Positions 49,518-49,531 of a stretch of DNA of 64,000 nucleotides are shown here, piece by piece. Below the pieces are notes generated by a model. That model ran no database searches. It saw only the letters and a program-made list of their open reading frames with translations, and was not told where the DNA came from. The stretch lies in the NCBI RefSeq assembly GCF_053078305.1, contig NZ_CP166879.1; one strand, given 5' to 3'. Numbering within the stretch: the first letter of the stretch is position 1; the number at the start of each line of letters is the position of its first letter. A program made the translations under genes and the position numbers.

Positions 49518-49531
49518 TTGACAAATATCAA
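49518..49531 (+). promoter_or_regulatory. FNR box in the fnr promoter (autoregulation site)
   Basis: TTGACAAATATCAA, near-perfect TTGAT-N4-ATCAA, about 20 bp upstream of the fnr ATG. Confidence 0.55.

Follow-up and report, generated by a model that had tools for sequence, protein, structure and literature searches.

FNR box across the transcription start of fnr in an Escherichia coli genome: the known site of negative autoregulation and its conservation in Enterobacterales

Introduction

The activity of FNR is set by cluster chemistry and not by the amount of protein, and feedback on the fnr gene helps to keep total FNR protein roughly equal with and without oxygen. The downstream FNR site of the fnr promoter is reportedly required in vivo and sufficient in vitro, and FNR-dependent repression in vitro is said to have been obtained from a fragment starting downstream of ogt. 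The details of footprinting and mutagenesis of this operator (Mettert and Kiley, 2007; Spiro and Guest) are given here as cited. Published statements place fnr under negative autoregulation via an FNR site lying across the transcription start. For example, one article, citing Mettert and Kiley (2007), refers to FNR_EC as regulating its own expression negatively (PMC6659574), and Ravcheev et al. (2007; PMC1805755) describe fnr as autoregulated in E. coli and predict likewise for Yersinia, Pasteurellaceae and Vibrionaceae.

The most complete data set considered here is that of Myers et al. (2013; PMC3688515) on strain K-12. [quoted passage not shown] The same table credits Mettert and Kiley (2007) for both binding and regulation at fnr. 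In Table S8, fnr is called "Repressed" in all three transcriptome sets comparing the wild type with an FNR- strain, a comparison made against an fnr mutant allele, which may itself confound the call.

The present work deals with a window of 64,000 nucleotides, i.e., the whole stretch of E. coli DNA that was analyzed. The 14-mer that it carries just upstream of fnr is almost certainly the operator used by FNR to repress the fnr gene. This operator is already known, as it is the well-characterized K-12 fnr operator itself.

Results

According to the annotation, the gene order around the box in this E. coli genome is abgT, ogt, fnr, uspE and ynaJ. Two features are central to the locus:

FNR operator (FNR box) TTGACAAATATCAA, 49518..49531, + strand: near-palindrome with its center at -0.5 relative to the fnr TSS; negative autoregulation site
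fnr coding sequence, 49551..50303, + strand: 250 aa plus stop, from the open reading frame and its translation; encodes the trans-acting factor that binds the box

TTGACAAATATCAA was read from the sequence at exactly 49518-49531 (+ strand), where the original prediction had placed it, and its distance to the fnr start codon (ATG at 49551), which had been given as about 20 bp, was counted as 19 nt. Compared with the FNR consensus TTGAT-N4-ATCAA, the 14-mer shows one mismatch, a C for T at 49522 (position 5). Its half-site cores are TTGA/TCAA, with T rather than G at the first core position. It is this position, T/A versus G/C, that separates FNR sites (TTGA/TCAA) from CRP sites (GTGA/TCAC). One could think of a site for CRP, or for another regulator of the CRP/FNR family, instead of FNR: the inverted repeats bound by CRP and by FNR are related, and the A/T-rich flanks of the box are as in many CRP sites. 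However, the half-sites are TTGA/TCAA and not GTGA/TCAC, and the published data on FNR itself point the same way. Table S6 of Myers et al. (2013; PMC3688515) lists for fnr the 14-mer TTGATATTTGTCAA, which is the exact reverse complement of the box, the + strand of the window being the minus strand of K-12. The site has a PatSer score of 13.66 and a ln p of -12.16, better than the threshold of that study (-10.75), and it is flagged under an FNR ChIP-seq peak of K-12 (summit at 1,397,604, site at 1,397,570). In vivo occupancy by FNR was thus established by look-up of the K-12 ChIP-seq data for the identical 14-mer. With a matrix score above the threshold and an FNR peak in these data (PMC3688515), a site for CRP or a relative appears extremely improbable, and the naming of the element as an FNR box in the original prediction is borne out by the single consensus mismatch and by the same 14-mer in the published list, under a peak in K-12.

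Taken by itself, the match to the FNR motif is weak evidence, as such matches are not rare in the window. Eight one-mismatch matches to TTGATN4ATCAA were observed over the 64 kb, against 3.44 ± 1.57 expected from 100 dinucleotide-preserving shuffles of the window, none of which reached 8. Within the 194-nt ogt-fnr intergenic region, about 0.01 one-mismatch match would be expected. Since the motif alone is weak, the case for the fnr operator rests on location, on published binding data and on conservation.

The region is nearly the same as in K-12. Over positions 49300-49700, the window departs from K-12 MG1655 only at 49392, with a C where K-12 has a T; this substitution is 133 nt upstream of the fnr start site and far from the core promoter, and the sequence from 49393 to 49700 is identical. 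The fnr product has the accession WP_000611911.1, the same as K-12 FNR, and the encoded protein has the cluster cysteines Cys16, Cys20, Cys23, Cys29 and Cys122 as well as the recognition-helix residues E209, S212 and R213. Judging from this translation, the cognate regulator FNR is present and intact in the genome that carries the box. As both the promoter and the FNR protein are identical to those of K-12, the experiments made in K-12 transfer directly to the sequence of the window. The box is one and the same as the downstream FNR site of the K-12 fnr promoter (Spiro and Guest; Mettert and Kiley, 2007; Myers et al., 2013). Window and K-12 share the 14-mer, the promoter between 49393 and the ATG, the FNR accession and the gene neighborhood, and the two differences, which are the substitution at 49392 and a strain background other than K-12, are not relevant. 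Also, the ogt-fnr region (401 nt around the box) is found with at least 95% identity in 5402 of the 5426 complete E. coli genomes.

The published position of the site served to lay out the promoter. As the center of the site is at -0.5, the A at 49525 corresponds to +1, and the following elements were placed relative to it:

Deduced fnr TSS (+1, A), 49525, + strand: eighth base of the 14-mer, from the published center at -0.5
Extended -10 element TGtTAAAAT, 49510..49518, + strand: deduced from the sequence with the literature TSS
Candidate weak -35 element TTACTT, 49490..49495, + strand: 17 bp upstream of the -10 hexamer, deduced from the spacing; not picked up by the sigma70 consensus scan
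A-rich tract AAAAAGA in the promoter spacer, 49503..49509, + strand: conservation 0.85-1.00 per position in 80 sequences

With this TSS, the TG at 49510-49511 would be at -15/-14, the hexamer TAAAAT at 49513-49518 would be at -12..-7, and the fnr 5′ UTR would be 26 nt long (49525-49550). The FNR box spans -7 to +7; its first T is the last T of TAAAAT, and it covers the discriminator and the start site. The operator thus overlaps the -10 element and the TSS, the latter taken from the literature, of the gene of its own regulator. The original prediction had located the box by the start codon of fnr; the functional landmark is rather the transcription start that the box straddles. A scan of 49300-50500 for the sigma70 consensus found no promoter and no strong -35/-10 pair; it did not score the extended -10 type. 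We explain this miss by a promoter of that type whose -35 element is weak, and it was not counted against the presence of a promoter.

One scan of species-representative genomes gave 80 orthologous fnr loci, 79 of them with upstream sequence. The genera sampled included Escherichia, Citrobacter, Salmonella, Klebsiella, Enterobacter, Kosakonia, Cedecea, Buttiauxella, Dickeya, Brenneria, Pectobacterium, Serratia, Sodalis, Yersinia and others. The motif TGnTAAAA followed by TTGA-N6-TCAA was present in all the Enterobacterales fnr loci with upstream sequence (79/79), with invariant TTGA/TCAA half-sites, and the distance from the end of the box to the ATG ranged between 17 and 25 nt, mostly 19-20 nt. 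Twelve variants of the box were found among the 79 species, differing only at five central positions, and the commonest, TTGACCAATATCAA, occurred in 44 species. The mean conservation of the window base in the alignment was as follows:

Left half-site: 0.997
Right half-site: 1.000
First base of the box spacer: 0.20
Whole spacer of the box: 0.75
TG and -10 hexamer: 1.00
Remainder of the 5′ UTR: 0.85
Intergenic region upstream of 49490: 0.41

Outside the box, the TG and TAAAAT were invariant in the 80 sequences (1.00), with 0.91 at the n position between them, and so was the deduced +1 A (49525). In the candidate -35 element, TTA (49490-49492) was invariant and the remaining bases were variable. 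On sequence grounds, position and conservation put the fnr box beyond chance.

The conserved block is unbroken from 49503 to 49534, extended -10 element included, and the box is not an isolated island within it. As the box is contiguous with an equally conserved core promoter, its left half-site could be conserved because of constraints on the promoter. One may go further and ascribe all of the conservation to the core promoter and the initial transcribed region, FNR binding then being incidental and devoid of regulatory consequence. The continuity of the block with the extended -10 element speaks for such a reading, and so does the mark "o" given to fnr for its expression in the wild type without versus with oxygen in Table 1 (PMC3688515), where other operons have "+" or "-" and where "o" is read as no significant change. 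Several observations go against it. The right half-site is invariant, the dyad symmetry is kept although the central bases vary, and this combination of an invariant right half-site, a preserved dyad and a variable center is the signature of a dimeric DNA-binding protein. To our knowledge, RNA polymerase has no sequence requirement for the right half-site ATCAA at +3..+7. Furthermore, sigma70 occupancy drops in the absence of oxygen, three data sets show derepression of fnr in FNR- strains (PMC3688515), and the literature assigns autoregulation to the site at 49518-49531. A conservation due to the core promoter only is thus unlikely, and we give it a very small probability. Autorepression by FNR through the box, which the original prediction had proposed as negative autoregulation, is supported by the position at -0.5, by the lower sigma70 occupancy without oxygen and by the "Repressed" calls in the three transcriptomes.

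The region upstream of the box was also considered from the side of ogt. On the + strand, the stretch from the ogt stop (49356) to fnr (49357-49550) showed nothing that resembles an intrinsic terminator, so that read-through from ogt into fnr looks possible. The box could then act mainly on transcription coming from upstream, as a roadblock to ogt-fnr read-through, or it could activate a second promoter lying downstream of it. The lack of a terminator-like site is what favors these two roles. However, no -10-like element is present at a class II distance downstream of the box, where only 19 nt are left before the ATG, and the fnr site is classed as repressing, with a decreased sigma70 occupancy, in the published data (PMC3688515). 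A main role of this kind therefore has next to no likelihood. A roadblock is conceivable as something that would add to promoter occlusion by FNR, not replace it.

A second FNR-like 14-mer lies further upstream in the ogt-fnr region:

FNR-like TTAAGGGTTTTCAA, 49415..49428, + strand: center at -103.5; three consensus mismatches

We rejected it as a conserved second FNR operator, considering its three mismatches and a left half that is not conserved (conservation of 0.46, against 0.79 for the right half). The interval from 45 to 200 nt upstream of the ATG contained no 14-mer with two mismatches or fewer in 68 of the 79 species, and the available part of the thresholded Table S6 (PMC3688515) gives one fnr site and no second one. 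The conserved bases TCAAA ... ATAG (49425-49436) resemble part of the site of another protein. FNR reportedly does not bind the upstream fnr site, to which IHF is said to bind. IHF is also named in the title of Mettert and Kiley (2007). Instead of being an FNR site, 49415-49428 probably belongs to a region bound by IHF.

The seven other one-mismatch matches of the window are mostly intragenic (ynbC, an autotransporter gene, uspE, ycjG and the 3′ end of an SDR-family gene). Among the eight matches, only those of fnr and uspF are under a K-12 ChIP-seq peak in the available part of the site list (PMC3688515); those of aldA and ycjG are in this list without a peak, and the remaining four are not among the sites in that part of it. 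The following sites of the window, with the FNR box of the FnrS sRNA, deserve mention:

FnrS sRNA, 39831-39948, - strand: Rfam RF01796, 134.8 bits
FnrS FNR box TTGAGCGAAGTCAA, 39984-39997, - strand: center about 42 nt upstream of the 5′ end of the sRNA; under an FNR ChIP-seq peak in K-12 in Table S6 (PMC3688515)
TTGATCTAAATTAA, 36429-36442, + strand: between ompN and uspF, 76 nt before the uspF ATG (36519); its reverse complement is given for uspF under an FNR ChIP-seq peak in K-12 (PMC3688515)
TTAATTAACATCAA, 5491-5504: 45 nt upstream of the aldA ATG (5445, - strand); predicted site in K-12, without a peak in the available part of the list
TTCATTTGCATCAA, 59955-59968: inside ycjG; predicted site in K-12, without a ChIP-seq peak in the available part of the list
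TTTATTTACATCAA, 50528-50541, + strand: one mismatch, within the first ~30 codons of uspE, directly downstream of fnr; not among the thresholded K-12 FNR sites in the available part of Table S6 (PMC3688515)

Both start codons, aldA and uspF, come from a direct check of the window. In Table S8 (PMC3688515), aldA is FNR-repressed only in the RNA-seq set. Other small RNAs of the window had Rfam matches above the gathering score, as follows:

sok antitoxin RNA, 1459-1610, + strand: next to hokB
RydC, 2170-2233, + strand
MicC, 34900-35020, - strand
McaS, 43326-43421, + strand

Some differences between strains were also observed in the window. The distance between the FNR boxes of uspF and fnrS is 3.6 kb here (36435-39990) and 26.6 kb in K-12 (1,407,104 vs. 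1,433,720; Table S6 of PMC3688515). This shorter spacing indicates that the strain of the window lacks a segment of about 23 kb that K-12 has beside ttcA. We take this segment to be the Rac prophage. Strain D8 is collinear and has ttcA next to uspF. The window does not come from D8: its identity to that strain is 100% over the 401 nt around the box but about 99.2% overall, with an offset, and the window lacks about 1.8 kb (near 6516-6651, hrpA to ydcF) where D8 has four hypothetical genes.

Discussion

Repression of fnr by its own product would proceed as follows. In the absence of oxygen, FNR holds a [4Fe-4S] cluster, dimerizes and binds TTGAC-N4-ATCAA, and the dimer sitting at -7..+7 would sterically block either the binding of sigma70-RNA polymerase or the formation of the open complex, so that fnr transcription would fall. 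In the presence of oxygen, the cluster would be lost, FNR would become monomeric and leave the operator, and the fnr promoter would be unrepressed. We infer steric occlusion from the position of the site and from the drop of sigma70 occupancy. If the mark "o" of Table 1 (PMC3688515) is read as no significant change, the effect on steady-state fnr mRNA would be modest, which fits a modest homeostatic effect and not a switch.

The one departure of the box from the FNR consensus is itself a conserved feature. The left half-site reads TTGAC, with C at 49522, in 78 of the 79 species, the consensus TTGAT being seen in Salmonella enterica subsp. arizonae alone. We tentatively suggest that this C may mean a sub-maximal affinity under selection, such that autorepression would occur only at high [4Fe-4S]-FNR and would fix the set-point of FNR, an idea that we hold to be rather doubtful. 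The C may instead be doubly constrained, as it would occupy promoter position -3, between the -10 hexamer and the start.

Among global regulators that limit their own synthesis, FNR is a standard example, oxygen sensing being done via iron-sulfur cluster chemistry and not via protein abundance. The value of the present analysis lies in correct annotation and not in discovery, and it adds little, namely an operator that is invariant, together with the extended -10 element next to it, across 79 species of Enterobacterales, and a second, upstream FNR site, often drawn at fnr, that is not conserved as an FNR box.

IscR, which represses its own operon, follows the same network logic as FNR, with a cluster-dependent active form acting on its own promoter, but the protein family, the DNA motif and the signal all differ from those of FNR. 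Like fnr, ndh and the other Category 2 promoters are repressed directly by [4Fe-4S]-FNR under anaerobiosis and lose sigma70 occupancy, according to Myers et al. (2013; PMC3688515). The top-scoring site of ndh is at -50.5 in these data, upstream of the core promoter and not covering the start, whereas the fnr site is the one given there as overlapping +1. Finally, the class II FNR-activated promoters, such as that of fnrS in the same window, share both the motif and the regulator with fnr. At fnrS, with a box about 42 nt upstream of the start, RNA polymerase is recruited by FNR, whereas at fnr, with the box at -0.5, the polymerase is kept out by FNR. The window thus illustrates how one motif gives an outcome that depends on its position, with fnrS activated and fnr repressed.
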